Program-made: the position numbers and the translations under genes
DNA from: Patescibacteria group bacterium
GTDB taxonomy: Bacteria; Patescibacteriota; Minisyncoccia; UBA9983
Length of the DNA: 60,703 bases
Direction: 5' to 3'
Assembly (NCBI GenBank): GCA_040752125.1
Contig: JBFMFK010000005.1
Span: 1-60,703, forward strand
Shown here: positions 34,542-51,549 of the stretch, piece after piece
Layout: every line of letters begins with the position of its first letter
How positions within the stretch are numbered: position 1 is the stretch's first letter
Notes under the pieces: generated by a model
The model's database searches: none
What the model was told of the DNA's origin: nothing
What the model saw: only the letters and a program-made list of their open reading frames with translations

Positions 34542-36233
34542 ATGAAGCAATGGGTTTTGAGAGAACAGGTTTCGCCTGATTTGGTCAGGCAGATTTTGTT
34601 TTATAGAGGCATCAAAACAGAAGAGGAGATAGAGAAATTTTTAAATCCGGATTATGAACGGGATTTGCACGATTCCCTTTTGATTTTAAATATGGATAAG
34701 GCGGTGGAGAGGATTTTGCAAGCAATTAAAAATAATGAACGAATAATCATTTTCGGAGACTATGATGCTGATGGAGTTTGTGCCAGCGTGATTTTTTATG
34801 ATTTTTTTAAAAAAATCGGATTTGAGAATTTTCATATCCATATTCCCGACAGACATCTTGGCGGTTATGGTCTTACAAAAGAAGCCATTGATGAATTTGT
34901 CGGACAAAAAGCCAATCTTATTATTACTCTTGATTGCGGAATTACTGATTACGAAGAGATAGAAAAAGCTAAATCAAAACGCATTGATGTAATTATTATT
35001 GATCATCATCTCGTGCCGGAAAAACCTCCCAATGCTTTAGCTATTATTGATTTAAAACAAAAAGGAGAAAATTACCCCTTTAAAGAATTTTGCGGAGCAG
35101 GGCTTACCTTTAAGACAATTAAAGCGCTTATTAAGAAAGGACAGTTTAAAATTGTGCCGGGATGGGAAAAATGGCTTTTGGATCTTGTAGCTATTGCCAC
35201 TGTTGCTGATATGGTCCCGATTCTTGAGGAAAACCGTACCCTTGTTTATTTTGGACTCCGGGTTTTTAAAAAAACCAAAAGACAGGGATTACTTTTGTTT
35301 TTTAGAAGATTTGAGATAAACCCTGCCAATATTACCGAAGATGATATCGCTTTTGTTATTGCTCCCCGAATTAATCTTGCCAGCAGAATGGGACATGCCA
35401 ATACCAGCTTCGATCTCTTAACAACAGAATCATTTAACGAGGCAACTTGGATTACTAGTCATTTAGAAATGCTTAATAATGAAAGAAAAAGTATTGTTGA
35501 AGAAATTTTAAAAGAAATTGAAGAAGAAATTAATTATTCTGGCATTGCTGAAATAATTGTCTATGGAAATATTAATTGGTCTCCAGGTGTTTTGAGTATT
35601 GGTGCCACTAGATTAGTAGAGAAATATCATTGTCCGGTTTTTTTGTGGGGCAAAGGAGAAGCGAAAGAAATTAAAGGTTCAGCTAGAAGTGATGGCTCAG
35701 TTAATTTAGTAGAACTAATGCAAAAAATGCCAAACGATTTTTTTATTGATGCCGGTGGTCATTTTATGGCCGCTGGTTTTTCTTTAAAGGAAGACAAGAT
35801 TGATGATTTTAAAAGAGAATTGTTGCTAGCTTTCAAAAAAGTTTCCAAACAAAAAGTTGAAAATGAAATCTTATATATTGACAAAGAAATTTCTCTGGAT
35901 GATATTGACTGGAGTCTTTATTCTCTCATAGAAAAACTTCAACCATTCGGAATCGGCAATCCCAAGCCCCTCTTTTTGCTCTCTAATTTAGAAATTGCCA
36001 ATATGCGAAAATTCGGCAATGGCGGAATTCATTTACAGTTAGATTTTAAAAAATCTTTACCAGTTGGCGGAGAAGAAATTATTTCTGCCATAAATTTTTT
36101 CTCAAACAACAATGATTATCGTTTGCAATCAGGACAAAAAATAGACATAGTAGCCTCTCTGGAGAAATCCTTCTTCCGCCCTATTCCAGAGTTGCGATTG
36201 CGAATAGTTGATATAAATCTCCGTACTAATTAG
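34542..36233 (+). CDS. recJ: Single-stranded-DNA-specific exonuclease RecJ
   Basis: DHH-family motifs DYDADGV, LDCG, IIIDHH. DHHA1 motif GGH..AAG. Confidence 0.85.
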   Translation: MKQWVLREQVSPDLVRQILFYRGIKTEEEIEKFLNPDYERDLHDSLLILNMDKAVERILQAIKNNERIIIFGDYDADGVCASVIFYDFFKKIGFENFHIHIPDRHLGGYGLTKEAIDEFVGQKANLIITLDCGITDYEEIEKAKSKRIDVIIIDHHLVPEKPPNALAIIDLKQKGENYPFKEFCGAGLTFKTIKALIKKGQFKIVPGWEKWLLDLVAIATVADMVPILEENRTLVYFGLRVFKKTKRQGLLLFFRRFEINPANITEDDIAFVIAPRINLASRMGHANTSFDLLTTESFNEATWITSHLEMLNNERKSIVEEILKEIEEEINYSGIAEIIVYGNINWSPGVLSIGATRLVEKYHCPVFLWGKGEAKEIKGSARSDGSVNLVELMQKMPNDFFIDAGGHFMAAGFSLKEDKIDDFKRELLLAFKKVSKQKVENEILYIDKEISLDDIDWSLYSLIEKLQPFGIGNPKPLFLLSNLEIANMRKFGNGGIHLQLDFKKSLPVGGEEIISAINFFSNNNDYRLQSGQKIDIVASLEKSFFRPIPELRLRIVDINLRTN

Positions 36234-36244
36234 AATTTAGAATA

Positions 36245-36691
36245 ATGAGAATAATGGAAAAAATAATAGTCTATACTGATGGTGGATCGCGCGAGAATCC
36301 GGGTCCAGCAGGAATTGGTGTTATCATTGCCGATGAAAAAGGACAGATTATTAAGAAATATTCACAGAGTATTGGCATTCGGACCAACAATGAAGCAGAA
36401 TACGAAGCAGTCATTTTTGCTCTTCAAAAAATCAGGCATCTTTTTGGCAAACAAAAAATAAAAGATTTAGATATTGAGATAAGAATGGATAGCGAATTAG
36501 TGGCGCGTCAATTGGGAGGCAAATATAAAATTATTGAAGAAAAACTTTTCCCACTTTTTATAAAAATCTGGAATCTTAAAATGAACTTCGGCAATATTTA
36601 TTTTCTGCAAATTCCTCGCGAGAAAAACAGAGAGGCAGATAGGTTAGCAAATGAAGCAATGGATAAAAAACGAACTAGAAAACTTTTTTAA
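36245..36691 (+). CDS. rnhA: Ribonuclease HI-type RNase H
   Basis: YTDGGSRENPGPAGIG, NNEAEYEA, and C-terminal ..EADRLAN catalytic DEDD-like pattern. Confidence 0.8.
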   Translation: MRIMEKIIVYTDGGSRENPGPAGIGVIIADEKGQIIKKYSQSIGIRTNNEAEYEAVIFALQKIRHLFGKQKIKDLDIEIRMDSELVARQLGGKYKIIEEKLFPLFIKIWNLKMNFGNIYFLQIPREKNREADRLANEAMDKKRTRKLF

Positions 36692-36780
36692 ATCCCCCTC
36701 TACAATTTTGTATTTGTATGAAGCAAAAAATCAGAGTTGGCAGGCAAGCAATTTTTAATTATTGACATTCTAAAATTTTT

Positions 36781-36927
36781 CTAAGGGATATTTTGGAAAG
36801 TGCTGGAAAAATTGAACAGTATACTAAAGGTAAAAGCAAAGAAGAATTTCTAGATAATTAAGAAAAACAAGATGCTATTATGAAAAGATTGGAAGTTATC
36901 GGCGAGGCGGTAAAAAATATTCCTTAG
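36781..36927 (+). pseudogene. Truncated DUF86-type HEPN toxin remnant
   Basis: Reads LRDILESAGKIEQYTKGKSKEEFLDN*EKQDAIMKRLEVIGEAVKNIP*. This is the typical DUF86 N-terminal half, with an in-frame TAA at 36859-36861. It ends before the R-x4-H motif. Confidence 0.6.
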
Positions 36928-36934
36928 AAAAATT

Positions 36935-37231
36935 TTAGGATCTTTTCTTTTCATAAATTATCTTTTCATCCTTCAGGATATAATCTTTTAAGAGCGGCTT
37001 TATGGCGGTATATTCTACAAGGTCCACTTTTTTACCAAGCTTATCTTCCAGTTCAAGTTTTAATCCCACAAAATCAAACAAACTCTTTCCTTTCTTAAGT
37101 TTGACTAATAAATCAATATCACTTCGTTTTTTCGTTTCGCCCCGCGCGCAAGAGCCAAAAAGAGCCGCTTTGGTCACCCCTTGGCGTTTTAAAACAGGAA
37201 CAATTTTCTTTTTTATGGCTTGGATTGTCAT
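36935..37231 (-). CDS. Minimal nucleotidyltransferase (MNT antitoxin-type)
   Basis: ALFGSCARGETKKRSDIDLLV motif, 98 aa. Confidence 0.8.
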   Translation of the reverse strand: MTIQAIKKKIVPVLKRQGVTKAALFGSCARGETKKRSDIDLLVKLKKGKSLFDFVGLKLELEDKLGKKVDLVEYTAIKPLLKDYILKDEKIIYEKKRS

Positions 37232-37260
37232 ATATGAGTTATGTTATCATAATTTTAATT

Positions 37261-38721
37261 ATGAATCAAAGGACGGCTGCGGTTTTGCTGGGAGGGTTTG
37301 TTGCGGGTGTTTTGCTGCGTTCTTTTGTTGATTTCGGCTGGCAGTTTGCCGGCTTTTTTGTTTTGATTGGGATTGTTTTAATAATACTTTCTTTTATAAC
37401 GGAAAGCAGAAAATTATTTTTATTAACCGGCGTTTTCTTTTTTGCCCTGGCTGTCGGTGTGTTGCGTTATGAATTTAAAGATTACAAAAATAAAAATTTA
37501 TTAGAACAAAAAGTTGAGCAAAGAATCGCCATTGAAGGAATTATAGTTGATGAGCCCGATTCAAGAGAAAACTATACAAAATATGTCATTGAATCCGATT
37601 CGCCAGTTGGCGGAGAAAAAATCCTTGTTTATTCTTATCATTATCCTGAATTTCATTATGGAGATAAAATTAGAGCAGCTGGTTTATTAAAGAAACCGCA
37701 AAACATCAATGATTCTTTTAATTGGATTTCTTATCTTGCCAAGGATGACATTTATTATGGAATGATTTATCCGAAAATTGAATTTCTTTCTTCTAGGAAT
37801 GCATCTTTGATCAAAGAGAAACTTTTTACATTAAAAGAAAAATTTATCGGCAATATTAATAAAGTAATACCAGAACCACACTCTTCTTTTATGGGGGGGA
37901 TAACAGTTGGAGCGAGGCAGAGCATTCCTAAAGATTTGGTGGAGGATTTCAGGAAAACAGGTATAGTTCATGTTATTGTACTTTCTGGTTATAACATCAC
38001 TTTGGTGGCTGACACCACTATGAAAATTTTCAGTTTTTTGCCAAGGGTCGTGGGAACAAGTTTTGGTGTTTTAGGTATCGTCCTTTTCACCATAATGACA
38101 GGTGCTGGAGCAGCTACGGTAAGGGCTTCTATTATGGCGCTTTTAATTGTTCTTGCAAAGACAACAGGAAGAATCTACAGTATCATCTGGGCTTTAATTG
38201 TCACTGGGTTTTTGATGATTTTACACAACCCCAAAATTCTAGTTTTTGATACTGGATTTCAACTTTCTTTCTTGGCAACCCTATCTCTAATTTATTTAGC
38301 GCCTCATTTTGAGCAAAAATTGAAATTTATTACGAAAAAATGGAAATTGCGCGAAATTGCTTCCGCGACTCTAGCAACACAGGTTTTTGTTTTGCCTTTG
38401 TTACTTTATAAAACAGGATTACTTTCTCTGGTTTCTTTGCCCGTTAATCTTTTAATTTTAATTTTTGTGCCAGTCACGATGTTTTTTGGTTTCATTACCG
38501 GAGGCCTCGGAATGATAAGTCATCTTTTAAGTATTCCCTTTGGCTGGATTAGTTATGTTTTTTTGCAATATGAACTTTGGATTGTAGAATGGTTTGCTAA
38601 GTTATCTTTTTCGTCATTTACTATTTCTAATTTCCCATTAGGATTGACGCTGGGTGTGTATACAATTTATGGATGGTGGATTTATAAAATAAAAAAAGAG
38701 AATCAAAAGAATAAAAAATAA
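37261..38721 (+). CDS. comEC: ComEC/Rec2 DNA-uptake channel (OB/DUF4131 plus competence membrane domain only)
   Basis: Polytopic protein with ..GIVHVIVLSGYNITLV.., TGAGAATVRASIMA and FQLSFLAT motifs. The start is at MNQRTAAVLLGG (37261), 7 nt after CATAAT. Confidence 0.8.
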   Translation: MNQRTAAVLLGGFVAGVLLRSFVDFGWQFAGFFVLIGIVLIILSFITESRKLFLLTGVFFFALAVGVLRYEFKDYKNKNLLEQKVEQRIAIEGIIVDEPDSRENYTKYVIESDSPVGGEKILVYSYHYPEFHYGDKIRAAGLLKKPQNINDSFNWISYLAKDDIYYGMIYPKIEFLSSRNASLIKEKLFTLKEKFIGNINKVIPEPHSSFMGGITVGARQSIPKDLVEDFRKTGIVHVIVLSGYNITLVADTTMKIFSFLPRVVGTSFGVLGIVLFTIMTGAGAATVRASIMALLIVLAKTTGRIYSIIWALIVTGFLMILHNPKILVFDTGFQLSFLATLSLIYLAPHFEQKLKFITKKWKLREIASATLATQVFVLPLLLYKTGLLSLVSLPVNLLILIFVPVTMFFGFITGGLGMISHLLSIPFGWISYVFLQYELWIVEWFAKLSFSSFTISNFPLGLTLGVYTIYGWWIYKIKKENQKNKK

Positions 38722-38728
38722 TAAAAAG

Positions 38729-39583
38729 ATGGAAAATTTTAAAAAAAATTTTAAGTATTTCTTTGTCGGATTATTATTTTCAGTAACAATTCTTGTCTGG
38801 TATGCTGTTTTTGCAGAGACAAGGGACAGACTAATTGTGGCATTTTTAGATGTAGGACAAGGGGATGCAATTTTTATTCAGGCACCGAATGGCAATCAAA
38901 TTTTGTTGGATGGAGGACCAAACAAAATGGTTCTGCGCGAACTCTCAAAGGTTATGCCCTTTTATGACAAATCTATTGATGTAATTATTGAATCTCATCC
39001 CGACAATGATCATATCAATGGATTAGTTGATGTTTTAAAAAGATATAAAGTGGGGTTAACTATGGAATCAGGGGTAGAGAGTGATAATGCGGCCTATCAG
39101 CAAATTAAAGATATTATTAAAGAAAAAAATATTAAAAATATTCTGGCTCGTCAGGGAATGCGTATAAATATGGGTAACGGAGCATATCTGGATATTTTGT
39201 TTCCAGACAGAGATGTCTCCAGTTTAGAAACTAATTACGCTTCTGTTATTGCAAAATTAAATTATGGCAACAATTGCTTTATTTTCACTGGCGATGCGCC
39301 AAAATCAATAGAGCAGTATCTTGTTTCCATCTATAAAGAAAATCTGCAATGCGACGTGTTGAAAATCGGTCATCACGGTTCTGACACTTCCACCTCAGAA
39401 TCTTTTCTGGGTTATATAAATCCGCAATATGCAGTAATTTCTGTCGGCGAAGATAATAAATACGGCCACCCGCGCCAAGAAATTATTGATTTGCTAAACC
39501 AGTTTAAAATCAATATTTTACGCATTGATGAATCTGGTACAATAGAATTAAAATCTGACGGAGAAAATTTGATCGTCCAATAA
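38729..39583 (+). CDS. ComEC-type metallo-beta-lactamase domain encoded as a separate membrane-anchored protein
   Basis: LDVGQGDAIFIQ, SHPDNDHINGL, GDA and IGHHGS motifs, corresponding to the C-terminal domain of full-length ComEC. Confidence 0.8.
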   Translation: MENFKKNFKYFFVGLLFSVTILVWYAVFAETRDRLIVAFLDVGQGDAIFIQAPNGNQILLDGGPNKMVLRELSKVMPFYDKSIDVIIESHPDNDHINGLVDVLKRYKVGLTMESGVESDNAAYQQIKDIIKEKNIKNILARQGMRINMGNGAYLDILFPDRDVSSLETNYASVIAKLNYGNNCFIFTGDAPKSIEQYLVSIYKENLQCDVLKIGHHGSDTSTSESFLGYINPQYAVISVGEDNKYGHPRQEIIDLLNQFKINILRIDESGTIELKSDGENLIVQ

Positions 39584-39682
39584 ATGTTACCATTTAGAAG
39601 CGATCGCATTTATCTGGCAACATTTATTATTATCATTTTTACTCCGTTTGCAATAGAAGAAAAAAATTTTTAGAATTAGTAC

Positions 39683-40153
39683 ATGAAAGAAGAAAAAACT
39701 TTAATTATTATTAAACCGGATGCCTTGCAGAGAAGTCTGCTGGGTGAGATTATTCATCGATTTGAAAGAAAGGGGTTGAAAATTATGGGAATGAAGATGA
39801 TTCGGCTTGGAGATGCATTATTAGATGAACATTATTGTCATCATAAAGGCAAACCCTTTTTTGAATCATTGAAAAATTTTATGAAATCTGCGCCAGTGAT
39901 AGTAATGGTTTTGTCTGGTTTAAATGCCGTAAATGCAGTGCGCCTTATTGTCGGCCCGACCAAGGGATATGAAGCTGATGCCGGAAGTATTAGGGGTGAC
40001 TTTTCCATAAGCGGTCAGGCAAATATTGTTCATGCTTCTGATTCTAGAAAAACAGCTGAGGCAGAGATTGAAAGATTTTTTAAAAAAGAGGAGCTTTTTG
40101 AATATAAAAAAGCAGATTTTGAATTTATTTATGGAGAAGAAGAAAGGGGATAA
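39683..40153 (+). CDS. ndk: Nucleoside-diphosphate kinase
   Basis: TLIIIKPDA, GPTKG..A..GSIRGDF and NIVHASDS active-site region. Confidence 0.9.
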   Translation: MKEEKTLIIIKPDALQRSLLGEIIHRFERKGLKIMGMKMIRLGDALLDEHYCHHKGKPFFESLKNFMKSAPVIVMVLSGLNAVNAVRLIVGPTKGYEADAGSIRGDFSISGQANIVHASDSRKTAEAEIERFFKKEELFEYKKADFEFIYGEEERG

Positions 40154-40225
40154 TGGGTGGATAAACAGTTGAGATATTGCTGATAAAATGTTGCTAAAAA
40201 GATACGATTTGATATACTATAATCA

Positions 40226-40386
40226 GGTTATTGGAGAATACTTCTAGATCAAATAATCATTTTTGGGAGCTCTATATCCTGCTGATCTGCGGATTGGCAA
40301 TGCGGGCACCCACCTGGCATTTGGCTAGGGAAAGTATTACTCCAATAACCAATAGAGTTTTCCCGCCCTTGCGGGATTCTCTTTTT
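40226..40386 (+). ncRNA. Candidate structured ncRNA or cis-regulatory leader of unknown class, with its own -10 box and intrinsic terminator
   Basis: TATAAT at 40218-40223. A ~19-bp closing helix pairs 40226-40244 with 40330-40350, enclosing ~85 nt that includes a UGCG-capped hairpin. Terminator CCCGC-cctt-GCGGG at 40362-40375 followed by a T-rich tract. Confidence 0.4.
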
Positions 40387-40413
40387 ATAAAAAAATATTA
40401 AAATCTAATATTA

Positions 40414-40851
40414 ATGGATGATAAAAATAAATACCGTTTATTTTTGCTGTTTTCTCTTGTCTTTATTTTTTTTCTTCATGCTGTTGCAACATATTTTTAT
40501 CTTTACTGGATACTATGGTATCTTGATGATCTTTTACATTTTTTAGGAGGAGTTTGGCTTGGTTTGTTTGCTAGTTGGCTTCTTTTTCTTTCAGGGAAAA
40601 TTAATATTCAAACATCAAATTTTTTTATCATTATAATAATTTTAGGCATCAGTGCTCTTATTGGGCTTCTTTGGGAATTTTCAGAATTTTTATTGGATAA
40701 ATTATTGTCTATCATTAATATCGGTCGTGTTCATTTTTTTCAGCCAAGTATTGAAGATACTATGATTGATTTATTTTCTGATCTGTTGGGCGGCATCGTT
40801 GCAGCTATGTTTTTTTTGAAAAACAAAAGAAGGTATGGACAGCAACCTTAA
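40414..40851 (+). CDS. Small 4-TM membrane protein of unknown function
   Basis: Hydrophobic 145-aa ORF with conserved-looking H/E/D positions (LLHFLGG, WEFSEF, DTMIDLFSD). No family assigned. Confidence 0.45.
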   Translation: MDDKNKYRLFLLFSLVFIFFLHAVATYFYLYWILWYLDDLLHFLGGVWLGLFASWLLFLSGKINIQTSNFFIIIIILGISALIGLLWEFSEFLLDKLLSIINIGRVHFFQPSIEDTMIDLFSDLLGGIVAAMFFLKNKRRYGQQP

Positions 40852-42202
40852 ACTGTATTTTTTTGGCGGCGCCCAAGAAGTTACAGGGGCGTGTTATCTT
40901 TTAGAAGCCGAAGACGAAAAGATTTTGATAGATTGCGGCTTGTTTCAAGGTTTAAAAATCAATGAGGATAAAAACTATGAACCCTTCGGTTTCAACCCCA
41001 AAGAGATCAGTGCTGTTTTAGTAACACATGCACATTTGGACCATGTCGGACGGATTCCTAAATTATTTAAAGAAGGATTTAGAAATAAGATTTTTTCAAC
41101 ACCACCCACCCGGCCTTTAGCCAAATTGATTTTATTGGATAGTCTGGGAGTGATGGAAAAAGAAATGAGAAAAGATAAGAGAGATGAGAATCTTTATGAG
41201 GAAGCAGATATAAACAAGGCCATAGATCTCTGGGAGATTAAGGATTATCATCAAGATTTTAGGATTGGCGAATTTGAAATTGTTTTTAAGGACGCGGGTC
41301 ATATTTTAGGATCTTCAATCATAGAAGTAAAATATAAAAACAAAAAAATTGTTTTTACAGGAGATTTAGGTAATCCTCCTAACCCCCTTTTGAAAGACAC
41401 AGAAAAAATTATTGATGCTGATTACTTAATTATTGAAAGTACTTATGGAGATAAGACGCACGAGAAGATAGAAGAGGCAAATTTAAAACTGGAAAGAATT
41501 ATAGAAGATAATGTCCACAAACAAGGAGTTCTGATGATACCGGCATTATCTCTAGAGCGGACGCAAAAGATTCTTTTTGAAATCAATAATTTAGTTGAAA
41601 ACGGCAGGATTCCGCGGGTTTCTGTCTTTTTGGACAGTCCCTTGGCCATCAAGGCAACGGAAATTTATAAAAAATATCAAAATTATTTTAATGAAAATGC
41701 CAAAGAAATAATTCTTTCCGGAGATGAATTATTCGTCTTTCCTGGATTAAAGAACACTCTTTCAAGTCAGGAATCAAAAAAAATTAATAATGTGCCTCCG
41801 CCTAAAATCATCATTGCTGGCTCGGCTATGTCTAATGGAGGAAGAATTCTACATCACGAATACTCATTTCTTCCTGATGACAAAAATACACTCTTGCTCA
41901 TTTCTTATCAAGCAGTCGGGTCTTTGGGTAGATTTTTAGAGGAAGGAGCGAAATCGGTAAATATTTTCGGCGAAAATATCCCAGTCAGGGCTGCTGTAGA
42001 AAAAATACAGGGATATTCTGCGCATCCTGATATCAATGGTCTTACAGATTTTGCCCAGAATACAGCAGATTCTTTAAAAAAAGTTTTTGTTGTCCAGGGC
42101 GAGCCAAAAACTAGTCTGTTTTTTGTTCAAAGATTAAAGGATTGTTTATGCTTGGACGCCGTTGCTCCAAAACTTGGCGAATCATTTGAACTTCAGTTAT
42201 AA
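40835..42202 (+). CDS. Metallo-beta-lactamase / beta-CASP RNA-metabolising nuclease
   Basis: HAHLDHVGRIP (HxHxDH), beta-CASP region, and a C-terminal ..GYSAHPD.. motif. Confidence 0.8.
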   Translation: MDSNLKLYFFGGAQEVTGACYLLEAEDEKILIDCGLFQGLKINEDKNYEPFGFNPKEISAVLVTHAHLDHVGRIPKLFKEGFRNKIFSTPPTRPLAKLILLDSLGVMEKEMRKDKRDENLYEEADINKAIDLWEIKDYHQDFRIGEFEIVFKDAGHILGSSIIEVKYKNKKIVFTGDLGNPPNPLLKDTEKIIDADYLIIESTYGDKTHEKIEEANLKLERIIEDNVHKQGVLMIPALSLERTQKILFEINNLVENGRIPRVSVFLDSPLAIKATEIYKKYQNYFNENAKEIILSGDELFVFPGLKNTLSSQESKKINNVPPPKIIIAGSAMSNGGRILHHEYSFLPDDKNTLLLISYQAVGSLGRFLEEGAKSVNIFGENIPVRAAVEKIQGYSAHPDINGLTDFAQNTADSLKKVFVVQGEPKTSLFFVQRLKDCLCLDAVAPKLGESFELQL

Positions 42203-42211
42203 TTTAAGAAA

Positions 42212-42790
42212 ATGGAAAAGAGCGAAAAACACCCCCATTTTAAAATAAAAATTTGTGTTTCAGGCGCTGCAGATACCACCTACTGCGGTGACAATGCTCT
42301 AGAAAAAGGAAGAGAGCTTGGCAGAGAGATTATCCGTCAAAATGCAATACTGGTAACAGGTGCCACAACCGGTTTTCCTTTTTGGGCAGCAATGGGTGCA
42401 AAAGAAGAAAAAGGCTTGTCTATTGGTCTTTCTCCAGCTTCTTCTGAAAAAGAACATGTGGAAGCTTATGGTTTGCCATTGGATTATCTTGATGTAATAA
42501 TTTATACCGGTTTCGGCTATTCAGGAAGAAATTTACTTCTGACAAGATCTGCGGATGCGGTGATTGTTGGTTGTGGAAGGATAGGCACGATCAATGAGTT
42601 TACAGTAGCCTTTGAAGATAATAAGCCCACAGGTGTCTTGCAGGGAGATTGGAAGACAGATGAAATGATTGATAATATTTTAAGAGAGGCGCATCGGGGA
42701 TGCGGCAAGGTTGTTTTTGATTCTGACCCCAAAAGAATGGTGGAAAAGTTGATTGAAATAGTAAGACAGGAAAAATCAATCAATAGATGA
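42212..42790 (+). CDS. Rossmann-fold SLOG/LOG-like (TIGR00725-like) protein
   Basis: KICVSGAA...LVTGATTG...IVGCGRIGTINEF pattern. Family assigned by eye only. Confidence 0.5.
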   Translation: MEKSEKHPHFKIKICVSGAADTTYCGDNALEKGRELGREIIRQNAILVTGATTGFPFWAAMGAKEEKGLSIGLSPASSEKEHVEAYGLPLDYLDVIIYTGFGYSGRNLLLTRSADAVIVGCGRIGTINEFTVAFEDNKPTGVLQGDWKTDEMIDNILREAHRGCGKVVFDSDPKRMVEKLIEIVRQEKSINR

Positions 42791-43956
42791 TAAAACTTTA
42801 CATAACTGGCATTGGCATGATGATCGGGATGATTTTTGGGGCAGGTATTTTTGCCTTGCCTTATACCTTTTCTCAAGCCGGCCTTTTTTGGGGCAGTGTT
42901 CATTTTCTTGTCGCTTTCGTGATTTTGGTTTTTTTGCATTATTTATACGGCGAGGTGGCTTACTACACCAAAGGCAGGCATCGCTTTACTGGCTATGTGG
43001 AAATATTTTTAGGAAAGAAAGCGAAATTTTTCGCTTTTTTAACCACTATCGCTTCTTATTATGGCACTCTGCTTGTTTACGGCTTGTTGGGCGGTTTGTT
43101 TTTTTCTAATTTTTTGAACGGGGCGCATAAAAACACAATATCTCTTTTGTTTTTTGTTGCGGCTGGCCTAATTCTGCTTCTGAGAATGGCTAGAATAGCG
43201 GAAATCAATTTTTATCTCACCATCCCTCTTTTTGGCTTTATTATTTATCTTCTTTTCGTTGCTGTGCCCTCCATAGATATAGAAAATTTTTTATCAAATA
43301 TCAATTTTGGTTTTAGCAATAATTGGTTTTTGCCTTATGGTGTGTGGCTTTTCGCTTTGGGTGGTTTTGCCGCTTTGCCAGAGACGCGAGATATTTTTTC
43401 CGGCCATGGCTTGAGGCATTTTAAAAAGGCGATTTTTATCAGTTTAGTTGCTTCTGCAGTTTTTTACTTTTTATTTATTTTCGCTGTCTGGGGTGCAAGC
43501 AACAACAATACAACCGGAGACGCTCTTTCTGGATTGGCAAAAGTTTTAGGCCCAAAAGCCCTGATGATCGGTTCTCTTATCGGCTTTTTGGCAGTTTTTA
43601 CCTCCTATCTGGCCTTGGCTATTGATACGGAAAATATCTTTAGGTTTGATTATAGAATTAAAAAATTTTATGCCTGGTTTTTGACCGTTGTGCCGCCCAT
43701 CCTGCTTTTTTATCTTGGAGCAACAAATTTTGTAAAAACTTTAGGCATTATCGGCGCCATTGGTTTAGGTACGTTGGGAGTTTTTATTATTTTTATGGCA
43801 AGGAAATTGAGAAAAATAATAAAAGAAGGGGACAAATCAGACATTTTAATTCCTTTGGAAGGTGAATACATGAAGCCATCAAGAGCGCTCCAGATAATTG
43901 TTCTGGCAGGTGTCATATTCGGTGCTCTCCTCGAACTCTGGCAATTGCTTTTCTAA
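42787..43956 (+). CDS. Amino-acid permease-like transporter (aromatic amino acid/Trp-Tyr permease-like)
   Basis: About 11 TM segments and an N-terminal GAGIFALPYTF motif. Confidence 0.55.
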   Translation: MIKLYITGIGMMIGMIFGAGIFALPYTFSQAGLFWGSVHFLVAFVILVFLHYLYGEVAYYTKGRHRFTGYVEIFLGKKAKFFAFLTTIASYYGTLLVYGLLGGLFFSNFLNGAHKNTISLLFFVAAGLILLLRMARIAEINFYLTIPLFGFIIYLLFVAVPSIDIENFLSNINFGFSNNWFLPYGVWLFALGGFAALPETRDIFSGHGLRHFKKAIFISLVASAVFYFLFIFAVWGASNNNTTGDALSGLAKVLGPKALMIGSLIGFLAVFTSYLALAIDTENIFRFDYRIKKFYAWFLTVVPPILLFYLGATNFVKTLGIIGAIGLGTLGVFIIFMARKLRKIIKEGDKSDILIPLEGEYMKPSRALQIIVLAGVIFGALLELWQLLF

Positions 43957-44036: not shown

Positions 44037-44051
44037 GTATAATTGAAGGTA

Positions 44052-44909
44052 ATGAAACAGGGAGGATTACAAAGATCAATTAATTCCCTCAAGGATTATT
44101 TCTCAAAACGAGACGATATTTTGATGGCTTTTATTTTTGGTTCGCAAGTCAGAGGTAAAACAACACTGGAGTCCGATTTTGATATAGCCGTTTACTTTAA
44201 ACCGAAAAGTGGACGATTAGAATACGAGGATGATGTTTTTTATGACCAGGAAACAGAAATTTGGAATGACCTTGAGAAACTTTTGAGAAGCAAAGTGGAT
44301 TTTGTTGTTCTGAACCGATTACCATCTGTTTCTGCTTTCCCAATTATCAATAAGGGTATACCAATCATCATTAAAGATAGAAAAATATATCTTGATTTTT
44401 TATTACGTGTAAGTTCCCTGGCGATTGATTTCAGGGAGTTTATGAGAGATTTTGTGGCAATCAAAGCACGCTCGCACTCACTGAGCATAGAAGATAAAGA
44501 TAATCTTATTAAAATAGTCAATTTTCTAGAAAAAGAATTGATGGATTCTGAAGAATATGAAAAACTTGATTTCAGGACATACAAATCAGATGCTAAAAAA
44601 AGAAGAAGTGTTGAGCGATGGGTGGAAAACATCGTAAATGCGTCAATTGATATTGCCAAGATTCTTTTGGCTTCAAAAAAACAACAACTCCCAGACACTT
44701 ATGTTGATACCGTAAACCTCTTGTCGATTTTGGAGGAATTTGATGAAGAAATATCCAAAAAAATGGCTTCTTTTGTAAAGTTAAGAAATTTGATGGCACA
44801 TGAATATTTAGACTTGCGTTTCAGTCAAATTCAGGAATTTATCAAAGAAGCGAAAAAGATTTACGGTTATTTAATTGAATACGCCGATAATTTTATTAAG
44901 AAAAATTAA
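44052..44909 (+). CDS. Single-chain fusion of an MNT nucleotidyltransferase domain and a DUF86-type HEPN domain
   Basis: N-terminal FIFGSQVRGKTTLESDFDIAVY (GS..D.D). C-terminal ..RWVENIVNASIDIAK.. and RNLMAHEY (R-x4-H). The start is at ATG 44052; the track starts at TTG 44043. Confidence 0.7.
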   Translation: MKQGGLQRSINSLKDYFSKRDDILMAFIFGSQVRGKTTLESDFDIAVYFKPKSGRLEYEDDVFYDQETEIWNDLEKLLRSKVDFVVLNRLPSVSAFPIINKGIPIIIKDRKIYLDFLLRVSSLAIDFREFMRDFVAIKARSHSLSIEDKDNLIKIVNFLEKELMDSEEYEKLDFRTYKSDAKKRRSVERWVENIVNASIDIAKILLASKKQQLPDTYVDTVNLLSILEEFDEEISKKMASFVKLRNLMAHEYLDLRFSQIQEFIKEAKKIYGYLIEYADNFIKKN

Positions 44910-44916
44910 AAATCCG

Positions 44917-47304
44917 ATGAAAATTGTTGCGGATTTGCATATTCATTCAAAATATTCGCGGGCGGTTTCTCAAGAAATGACTCTGGAAAATATTGCTCTT
45001 TGGGCAAAGAAAAAAGGGATTCAGGTAATGGGAACAGGTGATTTTACTCATCCGCAGTGGTTTGATGACATCAAAACTAAATTAGAACCAGCAGAGAACG
45101 GACTTTACAATCTCAAATCTCAAATCTCAAATCTCAAATCTGAAGTTTCAAGTTTCAAGTTTCAAGATACGCGCTTTATGCTCACTGCGGAAATCTCCAG
45201 TATTTATTCAAAAGGCGGGAAAGTGCGGAGAATCCATAATTTGATTTTTGCGCCTTCAATAGAGGCAGTGGAAAAAATTAACACCAAACTCGGCTGGATA
45301 GGGAATTTAAAAGCAGATGGCCGGCCGATTCTCGGTTTGGATTCCAAAGAATTGCTGAAAATAATTTTAGAGGCAGATGAGAAATGTGTTTTGATTCCGG
45401 CTCATGCCTGGACACCCTGGTTTTCTATTTTCGGTTCTATGTCCGGTTTTGATTCTATTGAAGAATGTTTCGAGGAAATGTCACCTCATATTTTTGCCAT
45501 TGAAACAGGACTTTCATGTTATGATGAAAAGACTGAGGTTCTAGCCGAAAGTGGATGGAAGAAATTTGCTGACGTTAGACAGGAAGATAAAATCTGCACA
45601 CTCAATATTTCTACAGAAGAAATTGAGTATCAAAAACCGCAAGAGATTTACCACTCAAAATATCGTGGCAAGATGTATAGATTAAAAACTAAGCGAGCGG
45701 ATTTGCTCGTTACTCCAAATCATAATTTATTATATGCTCCTGTTGATTTTCGTGTGCGAAGGCCATACCGATTAAAAGAAGTCCGTTCTCTGTTCGGGAA
45801 ATCAAAAATATTAAGAAAAGACGGAATTTGGAAAGGAGAAAATCTGCATTATTTTACGTTGCCAGAAGTAAAAATACAACACGGAAGTAGATTTTATTCC
45901 GGTTTTCGGACTAAAAAAGAGAAAACAATTCCCATCAAACAATGGCTGAAATTTTTTGGCTTTTGGATAGCTGAAGGGTGGACAACGAAAGGTAATAATG
46001 GTGATTACGCTGTTTGTATTTCTAATAAAAATTATGAATTGATGACAGAAATGAAGCATATTTTAGAGAGTTTTGGATATAGTGTATTTTGGGATAAAAA
46101 AACAACAAACACAATTCGGGTAAGAGATTATCAACTTTTTCATTATTTGAAACAATTTGGGAAAGCATCTGAGAAACATCTTCCAATGGAAATTAAAACA
46201 TTATCAAGTAAGCTTCTTGAGATATTCTTGCAATATTATTTAAAGGGAGATGGTCATGTATACGGTAGAAATGGTAAGGGAAGATCAGCAACGACAATAT
46301 CAATACGTCTGCGCGATGATTTACAAGAAATTGCCTTGAAAACAGGAGATTCTGCATACTATAAGTTACTGAGAAAGAAAGGTTCTCCTTCCAACTCTCC
46401 GAGTCAGAAAAAACAATACTATCAGAGTGCAGATTCTTGGAATATCTATTTTATACGTCATAATCGCCATGCTATTATTCCTTCAACAATGAAGAAGTAT
46501 GGATACAAAGAGCAATGGGTTGATTATGACGGAATGGTATACTGTGTTTCAGTACCAAATCATACCGTATATATAAGACGAAATGGAATTCCTCTCTGGT
46601 GTGGGAATTCTGATCCGGCTATGAACTGGCGGCTTTCTAGCCTTGATAAAATCTCTTTAATTTCTAATTCTGATTCCCATTCTTTGCAAAAACTCGGCAG
46701 GGAAGCCAATGTTTTTGATTGCGAACTTTCTTATCGGGGAATTATTGACGCCATCAGGAGCAAAGACCCCAAAAAATTCTTGTATACCATAGAATTTTTT
46801 CCAGAGGAAGGCAAGTATCATTACGACGGCCACCGCGACTGCAGGGTGTCATTTCCGCCTGACGAAACAGAGAAACACAGAATGATTTGCCCGGTCTGCG
46901 GCAAGCAGTTGACCGTGGGCGTGCTTAATCGAGTTGCTCAATTAGCCGATTTACCCGCCGAAGCCGTAGCGAAGGCGGGCAGAATTCCCTTTAAGAATCT
47001 TATTCCCCTTGACGAAATAATCGGCGAGGCAATGAGCGTTGGCCCAAAATCAAAAAAAGTAATGGAGGAGTATGAAAAATTGGTTTCTAATTTCGGCAGC
47101 GAATTAAATGTTTTGGAAGAAGTTTCTTACGATGAAATTTCTAGGGTCGGGAATACCGAACTTGGCGAGACAATAAAAAGAGTGAGGGAGGGAAGAGTTA
47201 TTATCAAACCGGGCTATGACGGCGAATATGGAAAAATTTCTATTTTTACAGAAGACGAGAAAGAGAATATATTATCTGGTAGATCTCAATCAAGTCTTTT
47301 CTAA
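44917..47304 (+). CDS. EndoQ-like PHP-domain nuclease with Zn ribbon (COG1379-type), interrupted by an intein
   Basis: MKIVADLHIHSKYSRA and GTGDFTHPQW PHP motifs. CPVCGKQLTVGVLNRV Zn ribbon. C-terminal KPGYDGEYGKI. A 364-aa in-frame insertion lies between ..FAIETGLS and SDPAMNW.. Confidence 0.75.
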   Translation: MKIVADLHIHSKYSRAVSQEMTLENIALWAKKKGIQVMGTGDFTHPQWFDDIKTKLEPAENGLYNLKSQISNLKSEVSSFKFQDTRFMLTAEISSIYSKGGKVRRIHNLIFAPSIEAVEKINTKLGWIGNLKADGRPILGLDSKELLKIILEADEKCVLIPAHAWTPWFSIFGSMSGFDSIEECFEEMSPHIFAIETGLSCYDEKTEVLAESGWKKFADVRQEDKICTLNISTEEIEYQKPQEIYHSKYRGKMYRLKTKRADLLVTPNHNLLYAPVDFRVRRPYRLKEVRSLFGKSKILRKDGIWKGENLHYFTLPEVKIQHGSRFYSGFRTKKEKTIPIKQWLKFFGFWIAEGWTTKGNNGDYAVCISNKNYELMTEMKHILESFGYSVFWDKKTTNTIRVRDYQLFHYLKQFGKASEKHLPMEIKTLSSKLLEIFLQYYLKGDGHVYGRNGKGRSATTISIRLRDDLQEIALKTGDSAYYKLLRKKGSPSNSPSQKKQYYQSADSWNIYFIRHNRHAIIPSTMKKYGYKEQWVDYDGMVYCVSVPNHTVYIRRNGIPLWCGNSDPAMNWRLSSLDKISLISNSDSHSLQKLGREANVFDCELSYRGIIDAIRSKDPKKFLYTIEFFPEEGKYHYDGHRDCRVSFPPDETEKHRMICPVCGKQLTVGVLNRVAQLADLPAEAVAKAGRIPFKNLIPLDEIIGEAMSVGPKSKKVMEEYEKLVSNFGSELNVLEEVSYDEISRVGNTELGETIKRVREGRVIIKPGYDGEYGKISIFTEDEKENILSGRSQSSLF
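45109..45164. repeat. Heptanucleotide tandem array (AATCTCA x4, AATCTGA x1, AGTTTCA x3) inside the EndoQ-like gene
   Basis: Eight consecutive 7-nt units read directly. Encodes ..NLKSQISNLKSEVSSFKFQ.. Confidence 0.9.
45517..46608 (+). mobile_element. Intein with LAGLIDADG homing-endonuclease domain
   Basis: Starts with Cys (CYDEKTEVLAESG). Block B is LLVTPNHNLL (T-x-x-H). Two LAGLIDADG-type motifs (LKFFGFWIAEGWT and IFLQYYLKGDGHV). Ends ..VYIRRNGIPLWCGN with a +1 Ser. The flanks join to ETGLS|SDPAMNW. Confidence 0.8.
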
Positions 47305-47544: not shown

Positions 47545-47892
47545 TTAATCCATTACCTGTTTTACAATAGTATCAAATATTTCCGGATGTTTTTCTGCCA
47601 TTTGGACCAGAATCTTTCTGTTAATTTCCATTTTTTTCTTTTTTAATTGGCCCATTAATTTACTATAGGAAATTCCTTTTTGGCGACTGGCGGCATTAAT
47701 TTTTATCTGCCAAAGCTTTCTGAACTCTCTTTTTTTCTTTCGTCTGTCATGAAAGGCGTGCCTGCCGGCATGAAGTAGCGCCTCTTTTGCTAATCTTTCT
47801 TTTGATTTTCTTCCAAAGCGAAATCCCTTCACTTGTTTCAGGATATTTCTTCTTCTCTTCATTGATATGATTCCTCTTTTTACTCTTGTCAT
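47545..47892 (-). CDS. rplT: 50S ribosomal protein L20
   Basis: MTRVKRG..RRRNILK..KGFRG..AFHDRR is the classic L20 sequence. Confidence 0.95.
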   Translation of the reverse strand: MTRVKRGIISMKRRRNILKQVKGFRFGRKSKERLAKEALLHAGRHAFHDRRKKKREFRKLWQIKINAASRQKGISYSKLMGQLKKKKMEINRKILVQMAEKHPEIFDTIVKQVMD

Positions 47893-47957: not shown

Positions 47958-48146
47958 TTAATTCAATGGCAGGTATCTGCCTAAATCTTTTTTCTTAAGC
48001 TCAAAGCTTTCCCACTTCTTTTGGGATAATTGTTTCTTTCTTCTCTTTTTTGCACGGAAATGATCTTGGCCAGGTTTTCTTTTTAAAACCTTACCACTTT
48101 TTGTTATTCTCAATCTCTTTAATAATGATTTATTTGTTTTTTCCAT
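47958..48146 (-). CDS. rpmI: 50S ribosomal protein L35
   Basis: A 62-aa basic protein between infC and rplT, with a KTNKSLLKRLRITKSGK..HFRAKK pattern. Confidence 0.9.
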   Translation of the reverse strand: MEKTNKSLLKRLRITKSGKVLKRKPGQDHFRAKKRRKKQLSQKKWESFELKKKDLGRYLPLN

Positions 48147-48681
48147 ACTCTATTACTAAACTTATTCCTGAGGGGGTTCTTTGAGGACCATCAGCAATTT
48201 TATACTGCTCTGTTATAAGGTTTAATACTCTCTCCATTCTTTCCTTTAAAAAATTTTCAGCCAAAAATTTTGCCCGACCCCTCAATATTAAGTCAATTTT
48301 GACTCGGTTTTTTTCTTTTAAAAATGCGGATATTTTTTTTGCTTTTAATTCCAGATCGTGCTGAGAAGTACCAATTTTGACTCTAATAGATTTGGTTTCT
48401 GTTCGTTGGTTTTTTTTTGTTGTCTCTCTGGTTTTTTTCTGTTCTTGATATCGGAATTTGCCATAATCCATTATTTTTGCAACAGGAGGGCTGGCCGTAG
48501 GTGCTATTTCTATGAGGTCCAATTCTTTTTCCTTGGCAATTTTTAATGCCTCGCCCGCAGTCAAAATTCCGAGACTTTTTCCATTCTCGTCAATTAGCAT
48601 TAATTCTGGAGCAGTTATTTGATTGTTGATTCTTGTTTTTTTTATAAATTTAATTATATCCGAAACTACGTGGTTTACCAC
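48130..48681 (-). CDS. infC: Translation initiation factor IF-3 (true start possibly a downstream non-canonical AUA/AUU codon)
   Basis: INNQITAPELMLIDENGKSLGIL and the C-terminal domain KEIRVKIGTSQHDLELK.. are typical IF3. The tracked GTG start lies only 6 nt from the hairpin that follows the tmRNA. Confidence 0.85.
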   Translation of the reverse strand: MVNHVVSDIIKFIKKTRINNQITAPELMLIDENGKSLGILTAGEALKIAKEKELDLIEIAPTASPPVAKIMDYGKFRYQEQKKTRETTKKNQRTETKSIRVKIGTSQHDLELKAKKISAFLKEKNRVKIDLILRGRAKFLAENFLKERMERVLNLITEQYKIADGPQRTPSGISLVIEYGKNK

Positions 48682-48714
48682 GAGCGAGGTCTGCGTTTAG
48701 CAGACCGAGTCGAG

Positions 48715-49071
48715 TGGAGGTGGGGAGGGCGAACTCCCGTCCAAAAATTTATCCTAAAATATTTCTACAAACTTATCTGATTTTAAAATTTCAGAATAAT
48801 AAGTATAAAATCGGAAAAATCTCATTATTCTTATCTCCTTCCGCCAGATGGCAGATTTTCGGAAATTTCTCGGAGAAATTAAATTTCCTATTCCAATGAT
48901 AACACTCGGCCCTACCTATTGGACATCAGTAGGTAAGCGTGCTTTATGCGTATGCTAAAGCAGGTGTTCTAAATAAGTTTGCACTTATTGATTTTCTAAA
49001 AGTTTTACGAGCTTTTAGAATACTCGGTTTGCATATTTTATTCAAAATTATTGTCAAAACCAGTCACCCCC
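48715..49071 (-). ncRNA. ssrA: tmRNA (SsrA)
   Basis: The minus-strand 5' end GGGGGUGACUGGUUUUGACA pairs with the 3' end ..GGACGGGAGUUCGCCCUCCC-CACCUCC-A to form a 7-bp acceptor stem with a G3:U70 pair and a T-arm. An internal tag ORF reads GCA AAC UUA UUU AGA ACA CCU GCU UUA GCA UAC GCA UAA, giving ANLFRTPALAYA* (48944-48982). It is adjacent to smpB. CCA is not encoded. Confidence 0.85.
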
Positions 49072-51477: not shown

Positions 51478-51549
51478 GCGCGTGTAGCTCAATGGCAGAG
51501 CATCGAGCTTATACCTCGAGGGTTGTAGGTTCGAATCCTACCACGCGTA
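51478..51549 (+). tRNA. tRNA-Ile with genomically encoded UAU anticodon
   Basis: Cloverleaf folded by hand. Acceptor GCGCGUG/CACGCGU (G1-U72 wobble). D arm GCUC-AAUGGCA-GAGC. Anticodon arm UCGAG-CUUAUAC-CUCGA. Variable loop GGGUU. T arm GUAGG-UUCGAAU-CCUAC. Discriminator A. No encoded CCA. Confidence 0.85.

Follow-up and report, generated by a model that had tools for sequence, protein, structure and literature searches.

What is inserted in the gene of an EndoQ-like nuclease on contig JBFMFK010000005.1 of a Patescibacteria group bacterium (assembly GCA_040752125.1), and is it still able to leave the protein and to spread? The stretch under study comprises 60,703 nucleotides and is referred to as the window. 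An earlier note, written from the sequence, had proposed a LAGLIDADG intein that splits the conserved ETGLS/SDP block of a PHP/Zn-ribbon nuclease. According to our analysis, positions 45517–46608 very probably encode a complete intein of class-1 type, which appears functional, contains a LAGLIDADG endonuclease and is located between the two serines of ETGLS/SDP in an EndoQ-family nuclease from the Candidate Phyla Radiation (CPR). The observations behind this assignment are the anatomy of the insert, its fold, the precise insertion, the empty alleles, the conservation, and the discordant histories of insert and host.

The open reading frame (ORF) runs on the forward strand without interruption to position 47304. 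Its mechanical start is a TTG at 44875. Translation probably begins at the ATG at 44917, since more than 100 homologues share a consensus that opens with MxFIADFHIHS. As judged by the ORF scan and this consensus, the precursor gene (44917–47304, forward strand) codes for an EndoQ-family nuclease of 795 amino acids plus stop, split by one intein. Translation of both junctions gives the exact borders of the insert: FAIETGLS is followed by CYDEKTEV at 45517, and GIPLWCGN is followed by SDPAMNWR at 46609. The in-frame insert of 364 codons with Cys as its first residue, as described in the earlier note, is thereby confirmed. The N-extein (44917–45516) comprises 200 amino acids and the PHP-domain part. 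The C-extein (46609–47304) comprises 231 amino acids plus stop and contains the motif SNSDSHS, a Zn ribbon (H..C / CPVCG) and a C-terminal helical domain; the Pfam domain of its family is PF27218, annotated as MJ0043_C. A tblastn search detected no further copies of the intein in the window. An antisense ORF of 82 amino acids inside the intein region (45811–46059) was treated as a chance ORF.

Removal of the insert yields IFAIETGLSSDPAMNWR across the junction. The resulting product of 431 amino acids aligns end to end with Endonuclease Q of Pyrococcus furiosus (PfuEndoQ; PDB entries 5zb8 and 7k30–7k33; query residues 3–416 to chain residues 3–386, E = 1.4e-50), and the alignment is continuous over the splice junction (IETGLSSDPAMNW to LELGLSADSDMAD). 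The spliced product also covers positions 2–374 of the 374 positions of TIGR00375 (E = 7e-59) with a score of 200.1 bits, which is below the equivalog cut-off of 326.6. At the level of sequence, the spliced host is a family-level relative of EndoQ and not an established, proven equivalog.

The metal ligands of PfuEndoQ (H8, H10, E76, H84, H139 and D193) all have identical counterparts in the exteins, and the essential residues R114 and H195 as well as the pocket loop E167–L170 are likewise aligned to identical extein residues. The roles of the metal ligands and of R114 and H195 were taken from the structure paper (PMC5961232), according to which Glu167, Leu168, Gly169 and Leu170 form the pocket that takes up the flipped-out, deaminated base. 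On the basis of the alignment to 5zb8 and 7k30, the N-extein contains the equivalents of H8, H10, E76, H84, R114 and H139 together with the pocket loop ETGL(S), and the SNSDSHS motif of the C-extein contains those of D193 and H195. In the Zn ribbon three of the four Pfu cysteines are identical and the first Zn ligand is His instead of Cys. PfuEndoQ differs further from the host in the window, which is bacterial, in being intein-free and in having Ala at the position corresponding to Ser+1. With the end-to-end alignment and the retained ligands, the proposed identity of the host as an EndoQ-like PHP/Zn-ribbon nuclease holds.

The insertion point lies directly after the equivalent of Pfu Ser171, one residue past the Glu167–Leu170 (ELGL) loop of the lesion pocket, which refines the location in the catalytic core that had been suggested before. 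The intein therefore parts the pocket loop and the N-terminal ligands from the D193/H195 pair and the Zn ribbon.

Intein-free close relatives of the host are named 'endonuclease Q family protein' by NCBI. Several plain, intein-free EndoQ proteins carry the NCBI/UniRef name 'DNA helicase UvrD'. In a Cloacimonadota metagenome-assembled genome (MAG; locus L033) the EndoQ frame runs on for another 606 residues at the C-terminal end, and the end of this extension (…LHAAKGLEF…) resembles a UvrD-type helicase motif by eye.

The 120 closest relatives of the exteins (64–84% identity, 394–467 amino acids) are all intein-free. ETGLSSDP is found in 108 of these 120 homologues, and the exact sequence IFAIETGLSSDPAMNWR in 61. 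One of these homologues is encoded, with the site unoccupied, on an 83-kb contig of assembly GCA_041643235.1 (L001), an independent and syntenic relative. In a blastn comparison, window positions 35145–43832 (from a RecJ-like gene to a Trp/Tyr permease) and the EndoQ gene are all co-linear with L001, and the gene order upstream of EndoQ is identical. The alignment stops at window base 45517 (86.9% nucleotide identity) and restarts at 46609 (72.4%). The empty site of L001 reads …GAAACCGGTCTTTCA/TCTGACCCGGCC…, with the junction as …ATTGAAACCGGTCTTTCA/TCTGACCCGGCCATGAAT…. Since the break coincides exactly with both junctions, the insertion is not due to chance. The split of a conserved ETGLS/SDP block, as proposed in the earlier note, is borne out by this break and by the contiguous block in the intein-free homologues, and the window and L001 form as clean a pair of insertion and empty site as sequence alone allows. 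The DNA of the N-extein is closer to L001 (86.9%) than that of the C-extein (72.4%) or of the neighboring genes (68–77%).

By profile searches and structure prediction, the insert consists of a Hint splicing domain that is interrupted by a homing endonuclease of the LAGLIDADG type. It matches the model for N-terminal intein regions (TIGR01445) with a score of 28.2 at a cut-off of 24.5, and LAGLIDADG_3 (PF14528) with a score of 47.5 at a cut-off of 22.5 (E = 2e-12). The endonuclease part is also matched by the NCBIfam models of the intein-bearing archaeal PolII large subunit and RNA polymerase A''. An AlphaFold2 model of the insert, calculated from 116 aligned sequences, has a predicted local distance difference test score (pLDDT) of 92.6 and a predicted template modeling score (pTM) of 0.90. 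In this model β-rich N- and C-terminal parts surround an α/β core, in which two long helices correspond to the LAGLIDADG motifs. In a Foldseek search against the PDB, intein homing endonucleases (TliVMA, PI-TkoII, PhoVMA, PI-SceI and PI-PfuI; E = 4e-15 to 7e-10) occupy the first 16 ranks, and mini-inteins and the free-standing LAGLIDADG enzyme I-DmoI come next; I-DmoI and I-Tsp061I were matched with E-values of about 1e-4 and a template modeling (TM) score of 0.6, relative to the target. The Hint fold is thus detected in the predicted structure, and the LAGLIDADG endonuclease by profile and fold alike; the matches to the intein profiles proper are mixed (see below).

The best fold matches are the solved structures of TliVMA and PhoVMA (7qss–7qsu), PI-TkoII (2cw7), PI-PfuI (1dq3) and PI-SceI (1vde, 1lws), with TM scores from 0.5 to 0.63. 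The EndoQ intein shares with them the Hint domain that is interrupted by a two-motif LAGLIDADG endonuclease, and Cys1, the TxxH motif, the terminal Asn and the +1 nucleophile are all present. In contrast, the sequence identity is only 9–16%, and these inteins are found in VMA ATPase, DNA polymerase or ribonucleotide reductase instead of EndoQ. Moreover, the EndoQ intein differs from them by a penultimate Gly instead of His, by Cys or Ser instead of Asp at position F:4 and by an invariant Cys at G:5.

The residues expected for splicing and for DNA cleavage can be located one by one (forward strand throughout; invariance is given for 116 intein-bearing homologues). Cys1 (45517–45519), the N-terminal splicing nucleophile, opens block A (CYDEKTEVLAESG, 45517–45555); it is invariant in all 116 sequences and also present in 166 related inteins of other hosts. 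Block B (TPNH, 45712–45723) contains Thr66 and His69, and the whole stretch Thr66-Pro-Asn-His69 is invariant. The first LAGLIDADG motif (LKFFGFWIAEGW, 45946–45981) coincides with a predicted helix of residues 140–153 and carries the acidic residue Glu153 (acidic in 116/116; 114 Glu and 2 Asp). The second one (LEIFLQYYLKGDGH, 46216–46257) coincides with a predicted helix of residues 231–245 and carries Asp245 (Asp in 115/116). Hence, the T-x-x-H motif and the two LAGLIDADG motifs of the earlier note are found in place. Block F (MVYCVSVPNHTVYIRRNG, 46534–46587) has Cys343 (46543–46545) at F:4, where Asp is usual, and His349 at F:13. Among the homologues position 343 is Cys in 89 and Ser in 27 cases, and position 349 is His in 68, Arg in 26, Gln in 13 and Lys in 6 cases. 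Block G (WCGN, 46597–46608) consists of Trp361, Cys362, the penultimate Gly363 and the terminal Asn364, each invariant, and is followed by the equally invariant Ser+1 (46609–46611), the nucleophile of the C-extein, which corresponds to the second Ser of ETGLS-S-DP in the intein-free alleles. The WCGN ending followed by Ser and the penultimate Gly in place of His thus agree with the earlier description. Positions in blocks B, F and G were assigned by hand alignment to the Mtu RecA intein.

The frequent Cys at F:4 (89/116) raised the possibility of a class 3 (WCT) intein. The signature of this class consists of Trp at B:12, Cys at F:4 and Thr at G:5, usually without a nucleophile at residue 1. 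This assignment was rejected on account of Leu71 at B:12 (114/116), by Cys362 at G:5 and by the invariant Cys1.

Is the missing penultimate His a sign of decay? With the intein alone as query, 9848 cluster representatives were retrieved at E ≤ 0.001; at E ≤ 1e-30 there were 1495. Most of the representatives match end to end inside larger proteins. As judged by Pfam, these other hosts include an XPB-type helicase, a large terminase, DNA methylases and an RNA-ligase-like protein. From the best 149 representatives we obtained 166 full-length matches, which all begin with Cys; in 158 of them a terminal GN precedes Ser, Thr or Cys. This ending makes Gly363 a trait of the clade and no oddity of the window copy; on the evidence of the sequences the penultimate Gly is a clade rule and not a sign of decay. 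The penultimate His is usual in inteins, where it normally assists Asn cyclization, but it is not obligatory: Chen, Benner and Perler reportedly found in 2000 that some M. jannaschii inteins without it still splice. The relatives of this 'CYD...W[CS]GN' clade are similar to the EndoQ intein from end to end (query residues 1–364) with 28–58% identity and differ from it in their host genes and insertion sites.

The same comparison bears on whether the insert splices at all. A domesticated, non-splicing LAGLIDADG/Hint insertion that serves as an extra DNA-binding domain, with the 795-residue protein as the mature form, would account for the missing penultimate His, for the absence of Asp at F:4 and for a module that is unusually well conserved, above the level of its host. 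However, Cys1, TxxH, the terminal Asn and Ser+1 are invariant in all homologues, and the C...GN/(S/T/C) ends recur in 158 of 166 relatives from unrelated hosts, which makes sense only for a splicing element. In addition, the insert would part the lesion pocket from the D193/H195 equivalents in such a protein, and the close relatives are dominated by intein-free alleles. We regard this alternative as very improbable.

A different use of the same residues would be conditional splicing, for example redox-gated through Cys362 (G:5), Cys343 (F:4) and Cys1, by which the intein would be a post-translational switch of EndoQ and not only a parasite. Some other inteins are documented to splice under the control of a disulfide. 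Near the splice junctions of the EndoQ intein, Cys362 is invariant and Cys343 frequent, and with an intein in the substrate pocket the precursor should be inactive. On the other hand, position 343 is Ser in 27 of the 116 homologues, and many relatives in other hosts have Ser at G:5 (W[CS]GN). A regulatory role that the host needs is also hard to reconcile with the scattered occurrence of the intein and the empty alleles of close relatives. Such a switch is therefore an improbable explanation. A broader version, which we also consider unlikely, would make the EndoQ intein one member of a large, uncharacterized CYD...W[C/S]GN clade, with Gly for the penultimate His, Cys at G:5 and Cys or Ser at F:4, and with non-canonical or redox-gated C-terminal cleavage. 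If this was true, EndoQ activity would be conditional on splicing, and the interleaved phylogeny would be the trace of genes passing directly and repeatedly between CPR bacteria and DPANN archaea.

The EndoQ inteins themselves are widespread. A search with the full precursor resulted in at least 116 protein clusters of the same architecture with 740–850 amino acids and 55–71% overall identity. A scan of one genome per species of the Genome Taxonomy Database (GTDB) yielded 52 loci; in 51 of them the intein is located between ETG[LIM]S and S[DN]P, and the remaining locus ends at a contig edge. According to the record titles, the carriers include Nealson-, Taga-, Portnoy-, Roizman-, Wolfe- and Peregrinibacteria and Parcubacteria within the CPR, Omnitrophota and Cloacimonadota among the other bacteria, and Pace-, Woese-, Nano-, Aenigm- and Micrarchaeota, Bathyarchaeia, Brockarchaeota and Nitrososphaerales among the archaea. 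Could the insertion stem from faulty assembly or binning, for instance from a chimeric contig? The window probably comes from a metagenome assembly, and no sequencing run with reads to map across it was found. However, the reading frame is unbroken through both junctions, and more than 100 independent assemblies of various origins show the same architecture. The probability of an artefact is accordingly negligible.

The inteins at this EndoQ site form one tight group with 55–99% identity. The mean column identity is 0.58 and 0.68 for the two halves of the endonuclease, 0.63 and 0.73 for the Hint parts and 0.48 for the exteins. The endonuclease and splicing domains are conserved to a similar degree, and every part of the intein is conserved above the exteins. 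Of 151 highly conserved positions in the intein, the window copy matches the consensus at 148; the deviations are T10A, A89V and L256R.

In comparison with the protein of the window, intein-bearing homologues reach up to 81.6% identity in the intein and at most 66.4% in the exteins, and intein-free relatives reach up to 84% in the exteins. For the 47 complete loci, the intein identity exceeds the extein identity in 1037 of 1081 pairs, and the two are almost uncorrelated (Spearman rho = 0.13). Pairs of a bacterium and an archaeon have a mean identity of 62.8% (maximum 74.9%) in the intein versus 46.6% (maximum 56.9%) in the exteins. Neighbor-joining trees, calculated from identity-derived distances without bootstrapping, place the bacteria in one clade for the exteins, with a single change of the domain label, whereas the intein tree requires 6 changes compared to about 15 for random labels. 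The G+C content at third codon positions is 0.27 in the intein, 0.36 in the N-extein and 0.43 in the C-extein. Between loci as divergent as these, synonymous sites are saturated. An intein that is more conserved than its host, a tree that mixes the two domains and nearest extein relatives that are intein-free fit active homing; the sequences suggest an element that moves horizontally and repeatedly across the boundary between bacteria and archaea. They also fit a homing element with repeated gain, with loss or absence in close relatives and with transfer between distant lineages.

In a pair of Nitrososphaerales MAGs (L039 and L040) the inteins at this site, referred to below as site b, are 99.2% and the exteins 93.4% identical, and an intein at a second site (site a, see below) is present only in L039. 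This difference may reflect a recent gain or loss between close relatives.

The decoupled histories matter for the state of the endonuclease. Many natural inteins are in a state of the homing cycle with intact splicing and a dead endonuclease, and the intein could be such a fixed, vertically inherited passenger in this lineage; the three deviations of the window copy from the consensus would be in line with that. The window copy, however, has both LAGLIDADG acidic residues, which are kept in at least 115 of the 116 homologues, its endonuclease domain belongs to a family in which this domain is conserved about as well as the splicing domain, the closest extein relatives including the syntenic L001 are intein-free, and the intein and extein histories are decoupled. 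A dead endonuclease is thus improbable, and a functional intein with an intact endonuclease is the preferred reading. The term 'probably active' of the earlier note appears justified by the splice residues (116/116), the acidic residues of the endonuclease (at least 115/116) and the discordant histories.

A number of observations weigh against a functional, horizontally moving intein. The Intein_splicing model (PF14890, residues 10–358) scores 29.5 (E = 7.5e-7) and stays below its gathering score of 35.8, and no C-terminal intein profile matched the insert in the profile searches, probably because the ending is unusual. Gly takes the place of the penultimate His, and F:4 is Cys or Ser instead of Asp. 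The trees are simple, unbootstrapped neighbor-joining trees from identity-derived distances. Several MAG labels are doubtful (e.g. 'Gammaproteobacteria' and 'Planctomycetales'), and contamination of bins could inflate the apparent mixing of the two domains. The high conservation of the intein could in part result from strong constraint instead of recent transfer. A viral vector was not found: IMG/VR contained only inteins with 23–31% identity and no EndoQ intein. A sequencing run able to show intein-plus and intein-minus alleles together was looked for, and none was found. Finally, splicing and DNA cleavage are activities that we infer only from anatomy and conservation.

Based on established intein chemistry, we propose that the standard four-step class 1 pathway would apply. 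The gene would be translated as a precursor of 795 amino acids, in which the intein keeps the N-terminal ligands and the lesion-pocket loop apart from the Asp/His pair and the Zn ribbon. Cys1, aided by Thr66 and His69 of block B, would convert the Ser-Cys peptide bond into a thioester (N-S shift). In the next step Ser+1 would attack this thioester to yield a branched ester by trans-esterification. Cyclization of Asn364 would then free the intein, without the usual penultimate His, as it would across the clade. A final O-to-N shift would give the mature EndoQ with the sequence ETGLSSDP. The freed intein could act as a site-specific endonuclease on intein-less EndoQ alleles, over the region GAAACNGGNCTNTCN/TCNGAYCCNGC, and recombinational repair would copy the intein into the cut allele (homing).

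How does this element relate to what is already known? A second intein site in EndoQ, site a, has the arrangement PAH/C...HN/CWTPW and directly follows the metal ligand His139 (Pfu numbering). Its intein is unrelated to that of site b and was found in 106 of 120 top matches (proteins P0390–P0509), of which 93 have an empty site b. Both sites are occupied in L011 (at about 2501, toward the upstream end of the ORF) and in L039. In the gene of the window site a is empty, with PAHAWTPW unbroken. The two inteins share the host family, DPANN and CPR hosts and the vicinity of an active-site residue, but the site-a intein has a different insertion point and a canonical HN/C ending.

The earlier note was not aware of any description of the host as an intein insertion site. 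The literature searched contained no paper that ties inteins to EndoQ, to COG1379 or to these lineages, and to this extent the statement stands. It does not stand for the databases: at least 116 proteins carry the intein, and several of them are automatically named 'DOD-type homing endonuclease domain-containing protein' in UniRef. Other names of intein-bearing proteins in NCBI and JGI are 'hypothetical protein', 'PHP domain-containing protein' and 'PHP family Zn ribbon phosphoesterase'. Furthermore, InBase reportedly lists an intein 'Mja Hyp-1' in MJ0043 of M. jannaschii; MJ0043 is the protein that gives its name to PF27218 in the C-extein family. If so, a member of the EndoQ family would have been on record as an intein host ever since the M. 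jannaschii genome appeared. M. jannaschii was not among the genome matches for the patterns ETGLSCYD and AL[KR]xG[MID]SAYY, and a search with a homologue bearing the site-a intein gave more than 100 site-a inteins, with M. jannaschii not among them. The element is canonical in kind, and there is a real chance that the EndoQ family has long been listed as a host under the name 'hypothetical protein'.

Several other features of the window were noted. Just upstream of EndoQ, between the Trp/Tyr permease and the EndoQ gene, lies a gene of 288 amino acids (44043–44909, forward strand), in which a Pol-beta-type nucleotidyltransferase (MNT, E = 1.6e-18) is fused to an RNase domain of the HepT/HEPN type (E = 5e-15). 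As a rule, MNT and HepT are encoded by two separate genes and make up a toxin-antitoxin pair. In L001 the fused gene is absent at that position, and the permease and EndoQ genes are 17 bp apart. Downstream, two ORFs on the reverse strand (47545–47892 and 48130–48681) look by eye like rplT (L20) and infC (IF-3), followed by a tmRNA gene (48712–49071, reverse strand) with the tag ANLFRTPALAYA. These genes confirm that the window is of bacterial origin. A tRNA-Ile gene with the anticodon TAT (UAU), which is uncommon in bacteria, was located at 51478–51549 on the forward strand.

A compact, highly conserved Cys1/Ser+1 intein that is predicted to splice without a penultimate His could be of use for protein engineering, and its endonuclease could offer a new specificity. 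Being more conserved than its host, with a tree that mixes bacteria and archaea, the intein is also a convenient marker of gene flow among ultra-small symbionts. EndoQ often serves as an intein host and has at least two insertion sites, each of which adjoins a residue of the active site, in line with the rule that inteins settle in the functional motifs that are conserved best. For annotation, recognition of the intein means that many CPR and DPANN genomes, which have very small repair repertoires, regain a complete repair nuclease of the EndoQ type.

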